From the IMG/VR virus record IMGVR_UViG_3300013126_000012, positions 95,587-159,586 of that record: a stretch of DNA of 64,000 nt. One strand, given 5' to 3'. The stretch comes from a virus. Each line of letters starts with the position of its first letter. The stretch's first letter is position 1. The notes below the pieces were generated by a model. It did not search any database and was not told where the DNA came from. It saw only the letters and a list, made by a program, of their open reading frames with translations. Below are positions 44,897-58,827 of the stretch, piece by piece. The translations under genes were made by a program, and so were the position numbers.

Positions 44897-45020
44897 TATT
44901 GTTCCTATATTATAGATTATCTAATAATAAATATGACACCGTCATATTCAATAAAGAGCACCTATATAGCAAAAAATCTCCCCGTGCGAGAAAAACATAT
45001 ATAACCACCCGCATCATCTA

Positions 45021-45120
45021 GGGGGTGGTCTACCCCTTTAACGAAACCCTCCCCACCCCCCTATATAGCCCCCCCGATCACCCCCCGATACACCCCTATA
45101 CCATACCCCCCCTAGCCCCA
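45021..45120 (-). repeat. G-tract array (C-tracts on + strand)
   Basis: Eight runs of 3-7 C between 45047 and 45119 in an otherwise AT-rich genome. Confidence 0.85.
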
Positions 45121-45121
45121 T

Positions 45122-45150
45122 AAAAAAAGGGGGGCTATTGCCCCCCCTTG
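45122..45150 (-). terminator. Intrinsic terminator closing the early module
   Basis: AAGGGGGGGC-aata-GCCCCCCCTTTTTTT. Confidence 0.8.
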
Positions 45151-45166: not shown

Positions 45167-45400
45167 TTATACCGACTCGCGTAATGCTTCGCGTATCTCT
45201 GTGGCAGCTACATTGTCTGGATGACTTAAGTCGGACTTAATGCTTAGGGCTTCCATCAATTGATATATGCCTGCCCACTTACCTCTTAGACGATCGGTTA
45301 ATGTATCTGCTTCGCCATACCATTTCGTAGCCAGCATGTAACTTAAATATGCTTGGGCTTCTCGGTTTTGGATCTCTTGGATCATGTTCTTCTTTGTCAT
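45167..45400 (-). CDS. Early hypothetical protein
   Basis: AAGAGAGAG leader, own promoter. Confidence 0.7.
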   Translation of the reverse strand: MTKKNMIQEIQNREAQAYLSYMLATKWYGEADTLTDRLRGKWAGIYQLMEALSIKSDLSHPDNVAATEIREALRESV

Positions 45401-45532
45401 TGTCTCTCTCTTTTAATTAATAATAATAAAGATAAGAAATACGTTTCAATTATCCTAATCTTTTGGTAACTTTTTTTACAGCAGAAATCCGACGCCTTTC
45501 GACGCCGGATCCTGGTTCGAGATATATACGTT

Positions 45533-46483
45533 CTAAGCCGGGATGATTTGTTCTGCAATCATCATCTTGGGATTTTCAAATCCCATTGCACATATGCGGG
45601 CTGCCTTGATAAAGCTACGGAGGTTAATCTCTACTCCATCAAACTCTTCATCGAGCTCCTTCATCAACTGCAAAGCCTGCTCCTTAGCTGGCATTGGGAT
45701 ACGACGCTCCATTGTTATCATCAATTGACCCATTCTGGTAAACATCTGCTCCGTTGTCAAAGCAACATCACTTACAAAGCTACGTGAGCGAATTGCTTCA
45801 TCCAATTTGCTTTGATCGATGTTGGAGATAAAGATGATGCGCCCGGTAAACTCAAAATGGCGCGGTACCTCACTGCCAAACTCATCCTTGAGCGTCTTTG
45901 TGGAGATGTAACTAATCTTGCGGGTGTCATATGAATCCAAAGCCGCTTTGAGGATATTCACTGCATCATCGTCTTTGAATATGGAGTCGCAATCATCCAA
46001 CACAATAACCTTGTCGCTATTCTCATACAGCGTAATAAACAAACCGGCCGGGGTAGCACGACCCTTGAAGTGAACAAAGTCGGTAGACTCCTTAAGGCCC
46101 AATGACTCCAATGTACTCTTAACCAAATGCGTCTTGCCGGTACCCGCGCCTCCGGTAATAACAAGTGATGGCTGAATGCCACGCCCTACCATTTTAGTCA
46201 GCCGCTCAATGTTTGCAAACATCTCCTCTGGGTCTTGTTGCTCTTTAGCCTGCATAAAGGACATCTTGGCTACTGGTGGTGGAGTCAATGCAACACCCAT
46301 GTCCATTGCAGGTACTCGGGTAACACGGCCCGTTGTGGATACTACTAATACCTCGCGGTTCTTCTCAGCATTCAATAGCTGGATGTGTCGGATGGTGTCT
46401 TTAGGCGCTATGCTACCTGTGGTTGTGTTCTTGGCAAACAACTTGCCTTTAATTCTAACTGGTTCAAAAACATTACTCATCAT
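45533..46483 (-). CDS. P-loop (AAA+-like) ATPase
   Basis: GGAGTGKT, VIVLDDCD, IFISN, AIRSR. Confidence 0.85.
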   Translation of the reverse strand: MMSNVFEPVRIKGKLFAKNTTTGSIAPKDTIRHIQLLNAEKNREVLVVSTTGRVTRVPAMDMGVALTPPPVAKMSFMQAKEQQDPEEMFANIERLTKMVGRGIQPSLVITGGAGTGKTHLVKSTLESLGLKESTDFVHFKGRATPAGLFITLYENSDKVIVLDDCDSIFKDDDAVNILKAALDSYDTRKISYISTKTLKDEFGSEVPRHFEFTGRIIFISNIDQSKLDEAIRSRSFVSDVALTTEQMFTRMGQLMITMERRIPMPAKEQALQLMKELDEEFDGVEINLRSFIKAARICAMGFENPKMMIAEQIIPA

Positions 46484-46556
46484 ATATCTCTCTTTTTAAT
46501 TATACTTAAATTTAAGGAATTAATCAATGCGATCCAACCGTTTCGCAAACTTTTTT

Positions 46557-46838
46557 TTAAAATTTTATGTTATAAGGAAAATATGTTTTTGGTCCGCCGG
46601 CTATCTTCTTTTGATCTACGATGGCAAAACCAGATACAGAAGCACATACACTTACAGGAACATCTACGGCCTCCGCAATTGCGGAAATTTGATCAAACAT
46701 CTCCTCCGGCCAATTGAAACCACACTCAACTGAAATAGTAGTGGCTGCTCCGTATTTGCCGGTTATGCTGAATAATTTAACATTGCACGGAACTTTTGCT
46801 TGCTCCAAGCCTTGAACTAACTTTTGAAAATCTGTCAT
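46557..46838 (-). CDS. Early hypothetical protein
   Basis: AAGAGAG leader and promoter. Confidence 0.7.
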   Translation of the reverse strand: MTDFQKLVQGLEQAKVPCNVKLFSITGKYGAATTISVECGFNWPEEMFDQISAIAEAVDVPVSVCASVSGFAIVDQKKIAGGPKTYFPYNIKF

Positions 46839-46919
46839 ATATCTCTCTTTTTAATTTATATAAAGATAAGGAATATATCGATAGGATCCTAATCTTTTGC
46901 AAACTTTTTTTGGATTTTT

Positions 46920-47147
46920 TTACTTGCTATAAACTTCCTCATAGAAGCTTCGAAGCATCTTGCCATGCTCGGTACGCACATAGTCTCTGCGCAATTTAAA
47001 TAGATACTGTAAGCACCTGTTATAGGTCCAAAACTTCTCTACCGATTTGTTGGTGTTGGTGTTATAGAATGCCGTTGGGTTCTCACCATATTCTGCTTGG
47101 AGTGCTTGAACAATCTCCAACTTGCTATTAAATACTTCTTGTAACAT
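46920..47147 (-). CDS. Early hypothetical protein
   Basis: Start moved to MLQEVF behind AAAAAGAGAGCAT. Confidence 0.65.
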   Translation of the reverse strand: MLQEVFNSKLEIVQALQAEYGENPTAFYNTNTNKSVEKFWTYNRCLQYLFKLRRDYVRTEHGKMLRSFYEEVYSK

Positions 47148-47211
47148 ATGCTCTCTTTTTACGTCCTTAAGGGCCGACATTTCTGCCGACCCTGGACTGA
47201 GAGATATATCT

Positions 47212-47586
47212 TTATTGATCCTCGGAGCTGTCATCGCTCGCATCCTCATCTGCCGTCTCCTCAAATATGTTTTCCAATTCCTCGCGTATGTTATTAACTA
47301 TACTATCCGTGTCGATACGCACATCCACTAATTCAATAGTGTTGTTGTAATTCAATTCAAACTCTGCATCGTCAAAATCAACTATGTCCCGGGTGCGCAA
47401 ATTGCCAATGGCATTTTCGACAATGTCCATTACCTTGTCAAACGACTCCTCATTTAATAGGAACGTCTTGCTTTCGACTTGCTCTGCCTCCAACTGCTGG
47501 ATAAGGGCAATTACTTTGTCGATGTCAACTTGTGAAGATAACGTCTTTGCTGCTTCCAATTGTGCTACTAATTCTACTTTTTTCAT
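47212..47586 (-). CDS. Early acidic protein
   Basis: Start MKKVELV behind AAGAGAG; D/E-rich C-term. Confidence 0.7.
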   Translation of the reverse strand: MKKVELVAQLEAAKTLSSQVDIDKVIALIQQLEAEQVESKTFLLNEESFDKVMDIVENAIGNLRTRDIVDFDDAEFELNYNNTIELVDVRIDTDSIVNNIREELENIFEETADEDASDDSSEDQ

Positions 47587-47697
47587 CTCTCTTTTTTTTT
47601 GGTTTTGTGGGACTATTCCCTTTTTAATTATACTTAAATTTAAGAAATTAATCAATGCGATCCAAATCTTTTTGCAACTTTTTTGCAAAAAAGTTAT

Positions 47698-47907
47698 TCA
47701 CAATTGCATTTCAAGAAATTCTAGTATTGCATCATATAAGCCTGGATCATCACTTAAATCATTGCCATCTTCATCTCGAAATACCGTATCAATCACTTTG
47801 CCACTCTCATTCAGATAATCAATTACGTATACTGTATTACCTGCTGTCAATTCAATTTCGAAGGTTTCGGTAATTACGGCGCTAGTTGTTTTGCTAATCA
47901 ATTTCAT
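47698..47907 (-). CDS. Early acidic hypothetical protein
   Basis: Own promoter. Confidence 0.7.
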   Translation of the reverse strand: MKLISKTTSAVITETFEIELTAGNTVYVIDYLNESGKVIDTVFRDEDGNDLSDDPGLYDAILEFLEMQL

Positions 47908-47990
47908 TTTTTTCTCTTTTTAATTATACTTAAAGATAAGTAAAAAAAGAATGCGATCCAACCGAATCGCAAACTTTTTTCAAACTTTTT

Positions 47991-48146
47991 TTAATCAATT
48001 TTATTCAGGGTATCTATAATGGTATCGCATAACGTGGCTACTAAATTATTGTAATCTGCGCCTTCCAATGCTTCATCAATTCCGAATCCTTCTAAGATAC
48101 ATAATACGTTTTCCTGTAACTGTTCTTTTGCTTCTGTTTTAGTCAT
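47991..48146 (-). CDS. Early hypothetical protein (51 aa)
   Basis: Hand-translated MTKTEAKEQLQENV...; AAGAGAG leader. Confidence 0.65.
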   Translation of the reverse strand: MTKTEAKEQLQENVLCILEGFGIDEALEGADYNNLVATLCDTIIDTLNKID

Positions 48147-48245
48147 ATCTCTCTTTTTTTTATTTACTACTTTTTTTGCTGCGGCTAATTAACATCATAA
48201 TTAGCACCACGTTGAGCAACAAGCTCATATATACTATGTCGCCTA

Positions 48246-48395
48246 TCATACTCCGATATATACGGCCCCGGCGGTACCGGATGCTAACTTGTAAATAATA
48301 AAGGCAATACCAAATGCCAATAACCCGGTGCATGCTACTGCTAATGCCTTAAGGGTAACTTCTACTACGTTCTCGATGCTAAACACTTTTTTCAT
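48246..48395 (-). CDS. Early small membrane protein (49 aa)
   Basis: Hand-translated MKKVFSIENVVEVTLKALAVACTGLLAFGIAFII...; AAGAGAG leader. Confidence 0.65.
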   Translation of the reverse strand: MKKVFSIENVVEVTLKALAVACTGLLAFGIAFIIYKLASGTAGAVYIGV

Positions 48396-48480
48396 TTTTC
48401 TCTCTTTTTAATTTATATATAAAACCAAATTTCTACAAAGGGTTACCCTTTTTTTCAAACTTTTTTTAACTTTTTTTTTT

Positions 48481-48753
48481 CTAATTGCCTAAGCCATCAA
48501 ACGTGTTGACGATGTGGTCTACTGCAGATCCGCCTTGCTTGGCAGCGTTCTTCTGAGCCGCTACATCTGATATCGCCCGGGCAAAGTCTACGAGGTCGCC
48601 TTTTGCTTTTGCAACAAGCAACATTTCCATTATCATGCCCAACAACACAAAATCTTCATCGCCGGTTAGCATTGCTAATACCTGAGCATTGTTTTGAGCA
48701 TCTGTTACGTTCTGGATTAAGTCCCTAGCTAACTGTTCTTGCATTTTGTTCAT
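48481..48753 (-). CDS. Early hypothetical protein
   Basis: AATAAGAGAG leader and promoter. Confidence 0.7.
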   Translation of the reverse strand: MNKMQEQLARDLIQNVTDAQNNAQVLAMLTGDEDFVLLGMIMEMLLVAKAKGDLVDFARAISDVAAQKNAAKQGGSAVDHIVNTFDGLGN

Positions 48754-48941
48754 CTCTCTTATTTTTTAATTATACTTAAATTTAAGGAATTAATCAATGC
48801 GATCCAACCGTTTCGCAAACTTTTTTCAAACTTTTTTTAAAGCATGCAACTAATGATATATAGAATCAACAAGGGCATGATAATGTACATGGCTACGCGG
48901 CCGAAGAGATCGTTAAGATCTGGATCATTCTGTTTCATATG

Positions 48942-49679
48942 TTATAGGTATTGCTCAAGTAACTTAATTCCTGGAAGTGCTGCCAATGCCTCCTCAGCTT
49001 GACGAACCAATTGTCGTGCACGCTCATTTGTGATACCCATCTCCTCACCAATCTGCTCCATGCTTTGTGCATACTCAACACCTAAGCCATAATTGCGTCG
49101 CAATGCCTCTTCTTGCTTAGGCTTTAATTGTGCCAATGCTCTATCAATGTCAAACTTCAGGTCCGCGCGGTCTCTGCTGCTGCGCACCTCATCGGCTGCC
49201 AAGAATCGATCCGCATATGTCTCTTTGTTGTCATCATCGCCTACTGGAGTGGAAATGCTCTTTGTGGAATACTCCTCAGTAGCCGTACGGTGTGATGGGA
49301 TTCTTACTGTGCGGGATAAATCATTGAGGGCTTTCTGCAACTCGGCACGGATATACCATACTGCAAACGTTATGAATTTAACATTCTTGCTGGTGTCAAA
49401 ACGATCCACAGCCTCAAACAATCCAATGTTGGCAAATGCTATGAGGTCCTCCATCTCCAAGCCCATGCCCTGGTACTGTCGTGCCACTTGCACTGCAAAC
49501 CTCAGGTTGCTTTCTATTATGGTGTTGCGTGCCTTAAGGGAGCCTGCCTGTGCATCAAGGATTAACTGCGTCTCTGCCTCCCGGCTTATGACCTGAGCCT
49601 TCTTTATCTCGGCTACGTAACGCTTTGTGGATTCGGCGCCTACTATTGCACCATTTGTAACATTGATTCTTCTTTTCAT
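48942..49679 (-). CDS. Sigma70-family (RpoD/RpoS-like) RNA polymerase sigma factor
   Basis: IESNLRFAVQVARQY, EDLI...GL.EAVDRFD, FITFAVWYIR, RTVRIP, EQIGEEMGITNERARQL. Confidence 0.92.
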   Translation of the reverse strand: MKRRINVTNGAIVGAESTKRYVAEIKKAQVISREAETQLILDAQAGSLKARNTIIESNLRFAVQVARQYQGMGLEMEDLIAFANIGLFEAVDRFDTSKNVKFITFAVWYIRAELQKALNDLSRTVRIPSHRTATEEYSTKSISTPVGDDDNKETYADRFLAADEVRSSRDRADLKFDIDRALAQLKPKQEEALRRNYGLGVEYAQSMEQIGEEMGITNERARQLVRQAEEALAALPGIKLLEQYL

Positions 49680-49764
49680 AACTCTTATTTCTTTTTATAT
49701 ATAACCAAATTTCTGCAAAGGGTTACCCTTTTTTTCAAACTTTTTTGAAACTTTTTTAGCCCGC

Positions 49765-49950
49765 TTATTTGATAAAGCGGGGTTTCTGTAATGCTGCTCG
49801 AGCTTCTCGGTATATGCGGTTGCGTTCTGCTTGTGCCATTGCTTGCTTCACTGCCGCATTCAATTGTTGTGGACGTTTTGCATCTGCCAACATGCGGGCT
49901 GCTACTGCGTCTTGCTTGAAAAATCCTGAATTCTTTTTGCCTACTGCCAT
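49765..49950 (-). CDS. Early basic hypothetical protein
   Basis: AATAAGAGAG leader and promoter. Confidence 0.7.
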   Translation of the reverse strand: MAVGKKNSGFFKQDAVAARMLADAKRPQQLNAAVKQAMAQAERNRIYREARAALQKPRFIK

Positions 49951-50027
49951 CTCTCTTATTTTTTAATTATACTTAAATTTAAGAAAAAAATCAATGCGAT
50001 CCTAATCTTTTTGAAACTTTTTTTAAA

Positions 50028-50219
50028 TTATTTTTCCGGAATATCTTCCGTGTCATATAGCTCATAATCGCCATCACCATCACTGTCAGTACACGCGTTG
50101 ATGAATCCTTTACCTGATTGCACCATTGCTAATGCTTCTTCTTCTGTCTCTGCTTCTACTTCGAAGTATTGGAAGATTGTTGCTGGAATTTTTTGTTCAA
50201 ACTTAAATAACTTTTTCAT
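50028..50219 (-). CDS. Early acidic hypothetical protein
   Basis: EVEAETEEEAL motif. Confidence 0.65.
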   Translation of the reverse strand: MKKLFKFEQKIPATIFQYFEVEAETEEEALAMVQSGKGFINACTDSDGDGDYELYDTEDIPEK

Positions 50220-50224
50220 TGCTC

Positions 50225-50404
50225 TTATTTTGTAAATGTGATTTGATAATCCAAATCAAATGATGTTTTAACTTTAACTTTATAACCTTTAAACGTACCT
50301 ATTCCATAAACATAATCGATGAAACTCATTCTATCATCTGGATGTGCTTTGGATTGATATGTATTATACTCTTCTCTTAATTGCTTTTCTAATTCTTTTT
50401 TCAT
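50225..50404 (-). CDS. 59-aa protein, paralog of 51032-51211
   Basis: Hand-translated MKKELEKQLREEYNTYQSKAHPDDRMSFIDYVY...ITFTK. Confidence 0.8.
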   Translation of the reverse strand: MKKELEKQLREEYNTYQSKAHPDDRMSFIDYVYGIGTFKGYKVKVKTSFDLDYQITFTK

Positions 50405-50427
50405 ACTTGAAATATACGAAAAGGGTA

Positions 50428-50811
50428 TTAAATACCCTCTTCCTCTAATTCTTCTACTAAAATATCTACTCTGTAACTTCCTAATTTATTTACTAACCAA
50501 ATACCTCCTATAGTTAAACAATAAACATACTCTACTCCACTTTCAAATCCGTAATCAAACAAATCTTCTACATTTGGAAACGTTGTAAAATTCAAATCTT
50601 CATTTCGATCACGATGATATGCTATTGTACTTTCAGTTGATTCATTTAACACTGAAATATCACCTAGTTCCATTAGTTTTTCTGTTTTTTCTCTATCGTA
50701 GTGTTCAAATAATGTTTTTCCTACTCCTGATAAGTAACCATCAAAATGACAATATATTGATGTTACTGTTCCGTTTTCATTTTCAATTGCTATTCTACTT
50801 CTTGTTGCCAT
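50428..50811 (-). CDS. Conserved phage hypothetical protein
   Basis: MATRSRI...IYCHFDGY..GVG.TL; YHRDR.E. Confidence 0.75.
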   Translation of the reverse strand: MATRSRIAIENENGTVTSIYCHFDGYLSGVGKTLFEHYDREKTEKLMELGDISVLNESTESTIAYHRDRNEDLNFTTFPNVEDLFDYGFESGVEYVYCLTIGGIWLVNKLGSYRVDILVEELEEEGI

Positions 50812-50874
50812 AACCTTAATTTTTTAATTTATACCTGAATATATGAATGAGATTTTAGTTATTTTAATCCTGAT

Positions 50875-51024
50875 CTAATCTCTATCAAATTCTTTTCTAA
50901 TCAATTCTCTACCTTTTTGGTATTGTCTATCAGTAATATTTCCAAATATTCTAAATGTTTCTAACATATCCATAGCCATCTTTTTGGTAGGAGCTGTTTC
51001 AATCATTTCTTTTATTTTTTTCAT
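50875..51024 (-). CDS. Hypothetical protein (49 aa)
   Basis: Hand-translated MKKIKEMIETAPTKK... Confidence 0.55.
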   Translation of the reverse strand: MKKIKEMIETAPTKKMAMDMLETFRIFGNITDRQYQKGRELIRKEFDRD

Positions 51025-51031
51025 AACCTAT

Positions 51032-51211
51032 TTATTTTGTAAATGTAATTTTATATTCAAAGTCCCAAGACTCTTTTACCTCAACTCGGTGACCCTGGAA
51101 TCGACCCAAGCTATAAACATAATCAATAAAGCTCATTCGGTCCTCCGGATGCGCTGCGGATTGGTATTTGTCGTACTCCGCCCTTAACTGTTTTTCTAAT
51201 TTTTTATTCAT
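51032..51211 (-). CDS. 59-aa protein, paralog of 50225-50404
   Basis: Start MNKKLEKQ behind AAGAGAG. Confidence 0.8.
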   Translation of the reverse strand: MNKKLEKQLRAEYDKYQSAAHPEDRMSFIDYVYSLGRFQGHRVEVKESWDFEYKITFTK

Positions 51212-51265
51212 CTCTCTTTTTAATTTATTTAAAGATAAGTAAAAATCCAATGCGATCCAAGCATT

Positions 51266-51670
51266 TTAGGAAAAAAGTTTGGAAAAAGTTTTGGCTGTCT
51301 TAAGAGGACCTTTAAAGTCATTTTCGCGTCCCCATATCTCGGCTAAGCCACTATGTCCACACTTAGGAATTACCGTATACATTACATTGCCTGTCTCGAT
51401 ATTGCATATACGAAAATCATCATACAATGGGCCATTCATCGGACAATTATTCTTAAAGAACACATAGTGCGTCAATAAATCAATTTGCGGGTTATGCCGG
51501 AGGAATGTCTTTACCTGCTTCATCAGCTTCCAGGATTTGTTTCGTAAACTGGAATCTTTGCAGAACCAATCATAAAAGTTATAACATGCATCGTTCTGTC
51601 CCTGTGAGTCAATAATTAAGCCGTTGGCTTGTGCATTCAATTGATCTGCTAAATTTGCTGTCTTTGTCAT
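51266..51670 (-). CDS. Early conserved phage hypothetical protein
   Basis: FYDWFCKD.SL, YVFFKNNCPMNGPLYDDFRI. Confidence 0.75.
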   Translation of the reverse strand: MTKTANLADQLNAQANGLIIDSQGQNDACYNFYDWFCKDSSLRNKSWKLMKQVKTFLRHNPQIDLLTHYVFFKNNCPMNGPLYDDFRICNIETGNVMYTVIPKCGHSGLAEIWGRENDFKGPLKTAKTFSKLFS

Positions 51671-51761
51671 ATATCTCTCTTTTTAATTTATATAAAGATA
51701 AGGAATAAATCAATGCGATCCAAATCTTTTGCAAGAAAAGTTACAGAAAAGTTTGCTGGCT

Positions 51762-52124
51762 CTAAAAGCCAACAAACCCTACTTTGAGTGGTAACTCTAA
51801 TTCTTCTGCTATATCCTTTAAGCGCTAATAAGGAGCATATTCTATTTCTTCTTCAACGCGTCTGGCAACATCTGCTACGCTAAATCCATGGCCGAATCCA
51901 TAACACAATACAGCCTTTTGAATTTTAATCATCTCCGGCAATGCATAATCCAACCATTCCGAATCAGATCCAAACATTTCTACATCCATATCGCATGCAG
52001 CGGTCCACATTTCAAACACTTTTACTTTAACGGCTTCGGCAACCTGATCATTGTGGTCATACATTGCCTTGCTCCAAGGCTTAACAATCTCAATTCCGTA
52101 CTGGACTTTTTTTGCTTTTTTCAT
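51762..52124 (-). CDS. Early protein with probable internal amber codon (51825-51827)
   Basis: Frame continues RLKDIAEELELPLKVGFVGF to TAG at 51762. Confidence 0.55.
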
Positions 52125-52205
52125 TTTTCTCTCTTTTTAATTTATATAAAGATAAGTAAAAGATCAATGCGATCCAAATCTTTTAGCAACTTTTTTTACT
52201 TTTTT

Positions 52206-52394
52206 TTAAACTTTTTTTATCAAAGCCGTTATTTGAAAATTACCGCGAGGCAAATCCAACCGATGCATTAACCCGGCAATTGCACGATTCTCCGTTGTGA
52301 CATTGTCTACATTTGGTTGATATGGGAATTGGTGCGTTGCATTGTTTTGTACATCCAACACTATAAACCCGGCATACATTTTGTTAATCTTCAT
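52206..52394 (-). CDS. Early hypothetical protein
   Basis: First gene of module; promoter at about 52434. Confidence 0.65.
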   Translation of the reverse strand: MKINKMYAGFIVLDVQNNATHQFPYQPNVDNVTTENRAIAGLMHRLDLPRGNFQITALIKKV

Positions 52395-52480: not shown

Positions 52481-52692
52481 AAAAAAAGGGCGACCGAAGC
52501 CGCCCGTGGTACACGCCTGGGAATAAGAGAGAGAAACCCGTTGGTCGTGTTACCCAATATGCGGCGGGATCGAGGTGTTGGCGCCTAGGCCCACGTGGTA
52601 CCAAGTGTGAAGGTCGATCCAACGAATCGATCCCTTCGTTAACGATCCGCCGGGTGCGTCTGGTAGGAGCACATTGTTCCCGGACCCCGTCG
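52481..52692 (-). ncRNA. Candidate structured RNA with anti-leader segment
   Basis: GC-rich non-coding tract, nested stems, ends in GGGCGGC-TTCG-GTCGCCC-T7 terminator. Confidence 0.55.
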
Positions 52693-52776
52693 TTATTTTC
52701 TTCTACGTTCGCGGATTACGATCGCCGCAATCAATCCTAACAATGCCGCCATCCATACTATAAACAATATCATCAT
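52693..52776 (-). CDS. 27-aa membrane peptide
   Basis: MMILFIVWMAALLGLIAAIVIRERRRK; TTGGA...TATTAT promoter at 52796-52823. Confidence 0.6.
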   Translation of the reverse strand: MMILFIVWMAALLGLIAAIVIRERRRK

Positions 52777-52875
52777 CTTTCTAATTACTCTTATATAATA
52801 TGAAATACGCGCGCAACATCCAACCGAAAAGTAAAAAAAGTTTACGCTGTATAGCTAGCAAACCGAACGAAACCG

Positions 52876-53193
52876 GGTCTAAAACCTGGTTTTGGTCTAA
52901 AAATAGGACACCACTCGGACTAAAAATCAAACCGCTTTTGCTCTAAAAATGGCCTAAAAATAGGGCATATTGGTCTAAAAATAGCGGGAGGGTGCGGATA
53001 TTGCTCTAAAAATAAAGCATTCAGATCACTAGCTATAACGACACGCTGATATGGACTAAAAATAGACATGGTACGAGATCTCGTATATATAGAGCGCACA
53101 TTGGACTAAAAATAACCTTCACTCGGACTAAAAATAAACCAGGGAGATACGGGGCACGTGATCTAAAAATTGCGCATATCGGTCTAAAAATAG
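52876..53193. repeat. Array of 12 CTAAAA(AT) direct repeats
   Basis: Copies start at 52879, 52897, 52920, 52943, 52954, 52975, 53006, 53056, 53106, 53128, 53163, 53184. Confidence 0.9.
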
Positions 53194-53642
53194 GTGATCC
53201 ATGATCGCGGCTCATACAGTTCGTTTAAGAACATTGTAGCCCTTTTGGAGTCTAGATACCAGGTAAACCACAATAAAGACGCTATGCCCCGCCAAAACAA
53301 GTAGGACCGGCAGGGAGATATCTAATCTACCTTGCTGGATGCTACTACACACTAAAACTACAATTCATTCTGGATATGCGTCTATGAATATTACGTGTAC
53401 CATTCTAAAAATAACAAGGGGGCGGGAGCCATACTAGACTCTGTAACCAATTTGCATGAACTAGTAACGTATGTGGGAAACCCTGGGTACGAGGGGACTT
53501 ATGTACTTGTATGCATATATACATGTATCTCTTATTGCATACTCGTCTTTTATACTTGTATATGCTTTCTTCGTATATTAATTATTCTTCTTCAGTATCC
53601 GTAAACATTGCATTCCTACAGATACTAATTAGTCCAGACGCC

Positions 53643-58558: not shown

Positions 58559-58827
58559 ATTATGATACTATATTAATTAATAACCAAATTGCACATGACC
58601 ATCCTGCCGTTCCTACGAACAACATGGATTCTGTAAACAAATCTGGTTGTGGTTCCTCTAATCCTTTTATCAATCTAATCACACAGGCTAACGCCAATGG
58701 AATTCCAAAAAATGCTAATGTCATATCTCTTATTTTTTAATGTTACCAAAGCAATCCAAACCGGCTTTCCAATTTATAATCCAGTTAATACAGCCTCTGT
58801 TTAACCAATACTTTTTTTGTTCTTTTG

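Follow-up and report, generated by a model that had tools for sequence, protein, structure and literature searches.

The window analyzed here (64,000 nucleotides) forms the final 64 kb of a phage record that is complete (159,586 bases; 159.6 kb) and has direct terminal repeats. Almost all genes of this phage genome lie on the minus strand. The genome encodes a major capsid protein, portal, terminase, tail sheath, baseplate, clamp loader, primase, and single-strand binding protein, and this gene set indicates a T4-like myovirus. A bS21 gene is found upstream of the capsid genes (genome C1:86793-86936; L377:10754-10990, minus strand). No cultured phage was close, the only matches being chance terminators and distant sigma factors. 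The early promoters of the phage end in TAnnTTTA and are close to the Bacteroidota promoter consensus, TANNTTTG, the last base of which is position -5 (PMC6847099). This similarity points to a host among the Bacteroidota; a search via the phage bS21 gave no host identification. The genome has a single tRNA-Glu gene, and a distant relative has a tRNA gene cluster (L277:1100-1700).

Within the window, about 20 small genes with promoters of the host type make up an early block at positions 45167 to 52394 on the minus strand. Most of its genes bear an AAGAG(AG) tag in their leaders and are the proposed targets of the RNA described below. At the far end of the block, from 45000 to 45150, the minus strand is very rich in G-runs, perhaps a terminator or a genome-end signal. 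All 12 class I promoter sites are within the early block. Class II promoters have the form GGTTGGAT-N15-CATATTATATA, with TATTAT or TATAAT in place of the host-type element. When class II sites were scored with a matrix built from these promoters, the best score was that of the promoter of the RNA under study. Other class II sites precede genes for an AAA ATPase, the clamp loader, the DNA polymerase, and an endonuclease, so that the RNA is served by a promoter outside the early class, as an earlier note on this DNA had supposed. Class III promoters (ATATTTAT, 49 coding-strand sites) mark late, largely structural genes. A sigma-70-type factor is encoded at 48942 to 49679 on the minus strand (PHROG 351; Pfam Sigma70_r2/r4). 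It is the probable activator of the class II promoter of the RNA, and class II would thus probably be a middle class read by the phage sigma. If so, the RNA would be made later than the early genes. Another type of early promoter, marked by a palindromic GGGTAACCC box, was seen at 49700 to 49730 and 48420 to 48450, ahead of the sigma gene and of the gene at 48395.

The RNA unit lies on the minus strand at 52481 to 52825. It comprises a class II promoter, a 27-aa membrane ORF, a modular structured RNA, and a terminator, which agrees with the earlier description of a minus-strand unit. The putative promoter (52792 to 52825) is conserved in relatives; its TTGGAT (52823 to 52818) and TATTAT (52800 to 52795) elements are those first recognized, with the coordinates corrected by one base. 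The hydrophobic ORF is located at 52776 to 52693, as proposed, and encodes a predicted single-pass membrane peptide with a peak hydropathy of 2.8 and a basic tail; neither Pfam nor PHROG gave a match to it. An intrinsic terminator (52481 to 52505) closes the unit, with the previously noted UUCG loop on a stem from 52505 to 52488 followed by a U tail. The predicted transcript is about 310 nt long. Adjoining the unit, 14 CTAAAA repeats in one orientation occur at 52870 to 53413, with 0.4 expected. This array is kept upstream of the RNA in relatives and is a possible origin or packaging site.

We then examined the fold of the minus-strand RNA together with those of its relatives. Covariation was assessed by shuffle-based pair counts, which related sequences inflate. 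Module C (52641 to 52694) is a hairpin of three helices that has a bulged C and whose internal loop, CRGGGU/CGGA, is conserved. Among 20 distinct sequences, 95.6% of its cells were paired and 8 of its 16 pairs showed two-sided changes, a number matched by 0 of 500 shuffles and also exceeding all slid controls. Module C occurs once in the genome, is missing in some relatives, and is possibly a protein-binding site. Two DNA pattern scans for it were overwhelmed by GC-rich chance matches. The consensus fold contains module E (52609 to 52637), a hairpin with a GA bulge for which compensatory variants were read by eye in L258, L274, and L343. An alignment with L009, L296, and L304 identified a remnant of module B (52562 to 52602), a stem with an AACCAC/AACAC internal loop. 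Its 5' arm is missing from the genome as assembled through an apparent 9-nt deletion, and the intact stem covaries in relatives. Finally, module D (52508 to 52554) is a hairpin that presents a CU-rich loop. Its stems vary between lineages yet stay paired, with 33 cells showing two-sided changes compared with 15.9 in shuffles. The stems of modules B, C, and D covary, and G-U pairs exceeded A-C pairs on the RNA strand (12:5 and 25:11).

Two elements of the fold first drawn for this RNA had to be revised. The outer stem (52562-52572/52643-52652) lacks conservation: its 5' arm is part of the covarying module C hairpin, and in close relatives its 3' arm pairs with the arm deleted in this genome. 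The second stem-loop is present as the CU hairpin, spanning 52554 to 52508 instead of 52556 to 52518. The RNA of the window folded no better than shuffled sequences (z of -0.21, and -0.93 in a second run). For the RNAs of nine relatives, the z values were between -0.6 and -5.5, and six of the nine were below -2.4. Both the poor score of the window and the departure of the earlier outer stem from the conserved fold are attributable to the 9-nt deletion in module B. Six palindromic 6-mers run through the RNA region and are best explained as a product of the stems and the deletion. Rfam gave no match in the window, with best E values of 0.5 to 5.6 and scores far under the gathering thresholds, and only tRNAs in the relatives. 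Modules B, C, and E are undescribed covarying RNA motifs.

To place the unit in a wider context, relatives were collected by sigma-anchored searches (52 to 99% identity). This gave 44 related loci, which either cover everything between the repeat array upstream and the early block or include the end of the unit; they represent about 15 lineages and are not independent. At all 44, a leader-complementary tract is found on the same strand, downstream of a class II promoter and ahead of the first early promoter. All 45 selected loci have the tract, which lies mostly in loops and often occurs in two or three copies. It is usually a loop of 11 to 17 nt on a stem whose sequence differs by lineage, and in many relatives the terminator hairpin itself bears it. 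The expected presence of the tract in relatives was not universal, however: L275 and L277 (59 to 60% sigma identity) have AAGAGA leaders without a CU loop at the equivalent place, which makes two distant relatives without the loop, or three if the ambiguous L281 is counted. Where the CU RNA would be expected, L275 has another GC-rich structured sequence (L275:7785-7965), preceded by a class II promoter and with no Rfam match. A search with the upstream 416-aa protein gave four loci without the unit. The phages carrying the folded antisense-type RNA are a widespread, uncultured, freshwater group.

The other parts of the unit are less constant. The accessory parts are modules B, C, and E together with the peptide; lineages gain and lose them while the loop persists. 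A conserved 5' element starting GGAAGGUUGAUCCAACC, module A, replaces the small membrane ORF, for example at L017:7630-7680; equivalents were seen in L011, L016, L259, L261, L264, L366, and L371, and L016 also has a longer ORF. At L016:3160-3540, an ORF is inserted in the CU hairpin region and the 3' half of the hairpin is duplicated, which suggests mobile insertion at the loop. In L267, a tRNA gene with a CAU anticodon (L267:5712-5784) shares the transcription unit with the CU loop.

This distribution bears on the possibility that the structure is a cis-acting 3' region of a membrane-peptide mRNA, similar to a type I toxin, with the loop folding back onto its own leader. Hydrophobic ORFs of 25 to 31 aa resembling that of the window do precede the structure in many relatives, AAUAAGA is found at the 5' end of the RNA in many of them, and the loop can pair with the leader of its own transcript at -8.4 kcal/mol, with a bulge. 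Yet the loop persists where the small membrane ORF is absent (L017, L264, L267, L270, L366, and L371) and where the ORF in the unit encodes an unrelated soluble protein (L276, L278, and L279), and it tracks the early leaders, as described below. Nor was a terminator-like site for an antitoxin RNA found on the opposite strand; the scan of the plus strand, whose promoter model was that of sigma-70, showed neither a terminator nor a promoter. We consider a toxin-like cis arrangement quite improbable.

The tract complementary to the early leaders sits at 52536 to 52522, where it had been reported. It forms a 15-nt hairpin loop with a mean unpaired probability of 0.98 and is the proposed seed of the RNA. 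The perfect matches quoted for it all hold: 11 nt at 48753 and 49950, 10 nt at 45400, 9 nt at 48395 and 52124, and 8 nt at the sigma gene (49679). The same is true of the tag, AAGAG preceding 16 of the 20 early starts and AAGAGAG 12 of them. AAGAG lies just before the start in 16 of 20 early genes, compared with 3 of 173 other genes of at least 60 aa; the 4 remaining early starts lack it. On its coding strand, the genome has 13 copies of AAGAGAG, 12 of which are at 45.4 to 52.2 kb, and the opposite strand has one, which is the CU tract itself. AAGAGAG clusters likewise, with one or two adjacent opposite-strand copies, in four of five other large records; the fifth (that of L278) carries a different tag. 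We also looked for avoidance of the tag elsewhere and found none worth retaining (AAGAGAG, 1 copy against 4.8 expected at order 2 and 2.1 at order 3; rank 1412 of 16384).

A caution had been raised that the low-complexity pairing tract might match the leaders by chance. The tract is indeed of low complexity, but the clustering of AAGAGAG and CTCTCT exceeds chance: the RNA intervals (17.1 kb) contain CTCTCT 61 times, compared with 13 occurrences in the 539 kb of that strand lying outside them, these counts coming from the nonindependent loci of relatives. When the loop was compared with all start regions of the genome, the top 11 of 221 were early genes (AUC, 0.89), as the earlier note had predicted. 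The comparison with shuffled loops was less uniform; only 0.3 to 1.1% of shuffles equaled the leader count, but some U-rich genomic 15-mers tied with the loop in raw match count. According to RNAduplex, the predicted loop-leader duplexes are 7 to 11 bp long, have energies of -7 to -15 kcal/mol, and are low in complexity. Two short genes outside the early block, at 58724 and 58831, each share a 9-nt complementarity with the loop, which makes them possible additional targets.

A reading without regulatory pairing would make the tract an inverted copy of a leader, or simply the pyrimidine loop of a terminator or of a DNA hairpin beside repeats, at an origin or packaging site. The low complexity of the tract and the adjoining 14 CTAAAA repeats are compatible with it, and local copying would likewise yield co-variation of loop and leader. 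The exact placement of the loop in about 15 lineages despite different stems, the duplication of the loop hairpin, and the tolerance of the stems for G-U on one strand make such a reading highly improbable. A different use of the opposite strand, with the tract serving as a leader for genes there, was also rejected, since no AUG follows in the window and only 2 to 9 codons follow in L276.

Next, we asked whether loop and leader change together. The tracts of each RNA at the 44 loci were scored against the early leaders of each locus, row and column effects were removed, and clades were permuted. A loop fit its own leaders better than those of others (14 clades; P = 0.0003 for match length and P = 0.0013 for energy), also when L276 and L278 were left out (P = 0.004 and P = 0.018, respectively). 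Because the tracts had first been picked by motif after some leaders had been seen, the test was repeated on the whole 3' 250 nt, with P values of 0.0012, 0.016 without L276 and L278, and 0.15 when L279 was also removed. The mean best match to the own leaders was 8.3 nt for the RNA strand, compared with 4.4 nt for upstream DNA and 4.0 nt for the reverse strand. In L279, AGAUAGA leaders (7 of 16) are paired with a UCUAUCU loop, and in L276 and L278, GGAUAUG and UAGAGAUAUG leaders are accompanied by CAUAUCC and CAUAUCUCUA tracts. L011 and L270 have neither the UAAGAG leader type nor the matching loop end. The loops of L259/L366 and L348 do not favor their own leaders. The co-variation that the earlier note had asked for was thus found at the clade level, with a P value of about 0.001, but it comes mainly from two divergent lineages and falls to P = 0.15 without them. 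We regard the signal in these sequences as real and as resting on few independent changes.

In 329 of 333 tagged leaders, the tag ends 0 to 4 nt before the AUG. With a start site about 5 nt past the promoter element (PMC6847099), the tag would be inside the mRNA. The early leaders are short, A-rich, and unstructured (0 to -2.3 kcal/mol). AGGA or GGAG, resembling a Shine-Dalgarno (SD) sequence, is found in 12 of 33 leaders of late-promoter genes, compared with 0 of 20 early starts (Fisher P = 0.0017).

The usual 3' tail of 16S rRNA is CCUCCUUUCU, and the AG-rich tag could be a variant SD sequence, with the loop a mimic of the tail or a decoy for a protein (bS21, bS18, or bS1), so that tag and loop would both follow the host rRNA or protein. 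AGAGAG can form six pairs with the tail end CUUUCU (-5.7 kcal/mol), and modules B and C resemble protein-binding sites. Bacteroidota ribosomes keep the anti-SD sequestered, and bS21, which the phage encodes, helps sequester the tail (PMC7797042). However, the tag is too near the AUG for an SD sequence, whose spacing is 7 to 9 nt (PMC7797042), and its predicted pairing with the tail end is weak. The loop contains neither CCUCC nor the alternative AUCUCAUU, and loops that carry CAU and leader bases mirror mRNA rather than rRNA. We hold this explanation to be quite unlikely. An arrangement controlling the temporal program at translation, in which a private tag and a silencing RNA (the RNA equivalent of T4 RegB) act on early mRNAs, with SD-like late leaders becoming usable once the phage bS21 replaces that of the host, is a tentative possibility that we doubt.

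The reading that we prefer, and consider fairly likely, is that a middle-period trans-acting antisense RNA blocks initiation on the early mRNAs, including that of the phage sigma gene. The host polymerase would first transcribe the approximately 20 early genes with their private AAGAG(AG) tag, and the sigma factor among their products would switch on class II promoters, including that of the RNA itself. The RNA would then show the complement of the tag in a hairpin loop, as the fold and the covariation support. This loop is predicted to pair over 7 to 11 nt with the leaders inside the ribosome footprint, and across the AUG in several relatives; tracts with CAU, which cover the start codon, are present in L016, L017, L264, L267, L271, L272, L276, L278, and L343. 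Early initiation would be blocked, perhaps followed by mRNA decay. Because the sigma gene is itself a candidate target, a negative feedback loop would close. The block would also free ribosomes for the middle and late genes, which lack the tag. At the sequence level, the unit has what is expected of a trans-acting antisense sRNA, namely, its own promoter and terminator, a conserved structure, and an accessible complementary seed. No RNA chaperone was identified in our analysis, which counts against a trans-acting role.

A duplex at the position of the tag falls inside the ribosome footprint, and repression of initiation appears to be the simplest reading. The antisense interpretation also fits a loop that is unpaired, is kept amid varying stems, singles out early starts, and follows changes in the leaders. 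The alternative raised earlier, that the RNA titrates a leader-binding factor, is unlikely: such a decoy should contain the tag in its sense orientation, and the CU tract is the antisense copy. Pairing could instead guide or recruit ribosomes to tagged early mRNAs, making the RNA a translational activator; the accessory modules could bind ribosomal components, and the L267 unit includes the tRNA gene with a CAU anticodon. Repression is favored over activation, since the early leaders are unstructured and leave nothing to unfold; the pairing lies inside the footprint and sometimes over the AUG, and the promoter is not of the early class. Activation is therefore very unlikely.

The same pairing might serve mainly to block the early genes of a second, related phage, that is, superinfection exclusion instead of the timing of the phage's own program. 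The loop is nearly alike across many lineages and pairs with the leaders of most relatives about as well as with its own, and the c4 RNA confers immunity between P1 and P7 (PMC12197685). Against this, the early mRNAs of the phage itself are in the cell first and make equally good targets. Exclusion as the main role thus seems improbable, and the two roles are compatible.

The proposed antisense block has partial parallels in known systems. In Staphylococcus aureus RNAIII and RsaE (PMC2837412 and PMC2790875), pyrimidine-rich loops pair with several mRNAs at their ribosome-binding regions; RNAIII, in addition, drives an early-to-late switch and codes for a small peptide, as the phage unit may. 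These RNAs are bacterial, however, and their UCCC motif reads an ordinary SD sequence, whereas the phage tag is private to early genes, lies too near the AUG for an SD sequence, and belongs to a host group that mostly ignores SDs. The phage loop is a CU repeat rather than C-rich, with CCC in the closing stem, and the RNA has no sequence or Rfam relation to RNAIII or RsaE. The c4 RNA of P1 and P7 (PMC12197685) is likewise phage encoded and trans acting, with a loop complementary to the ribosome-binding region of its own phage's mRNA. It serves immunity in a temperate phage through one target operon (the antirepressor), whereas here a T4-like phage would have about 16 targets; no Rfam C4 match was found. 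Cuckoo RNAs of Alphaproteobacteria (PMC4615179) have neighboring hairpins, two to four in number, that share one pyrimidine loop motif while their stems vary, and many of the phage relatives have two loop hairpins. The bacterial cuckoo motif, CCUCCUCCC, is absent from the phage RNA, whose CU repeats track the leaders and which has added modules.

In T4, RegB and RegA inactivate early mRNAs via a shared motif in the initiation region, GGAG for RegB and the AUG region for RegA (PMC3014915). RegB, an endoribonuclease, and RegA, a repressor, are proteins, whereas the candidate here is an RNA. Searches for regA and regB gave no match in this genome, and the control genomes likewise gave no positive. 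Among described phages, those of freshwater Bacteroidetes that encode bS21 (Chen et al. 2022, PMC9723584) are similar in being myoviruses with bS21 near the capsid, portal, and terminase genes. Their complete genomes are 293 to 331 kb, with bS21 on the opposite strand, whereas the present genome is 160 kb, with bS21 on the same strand; that study does not mention a noncoding RNA or early genes. In a literature search with subscription journals mostly outside its reach, no account was found of this RNA, nor of a lytic phage that shuts off a whole gene class by antisense. As judged from sequence and alignment, the RNA is real, conserved, structured, and undescribed, and it belongs to none of the RNA families compared here.

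Even for T4, the ways in which lytic phages bring early expression to an end are understood only in part. The known post-transcriptional tools that T4 uses for this are proteins, and the described phage sRNAs that we found target either host genes or, in temperate phages, single phage genes. If the proposed mechanism is true, an RNA that silences a whole class of its own phage's mRNAs through a leader tag would be a new mechanism in the lytic timetable. Such an RNA could also be a compact multigene switch for the Bacteroidota, which largely ignore Shine-Dalgarno sequences.
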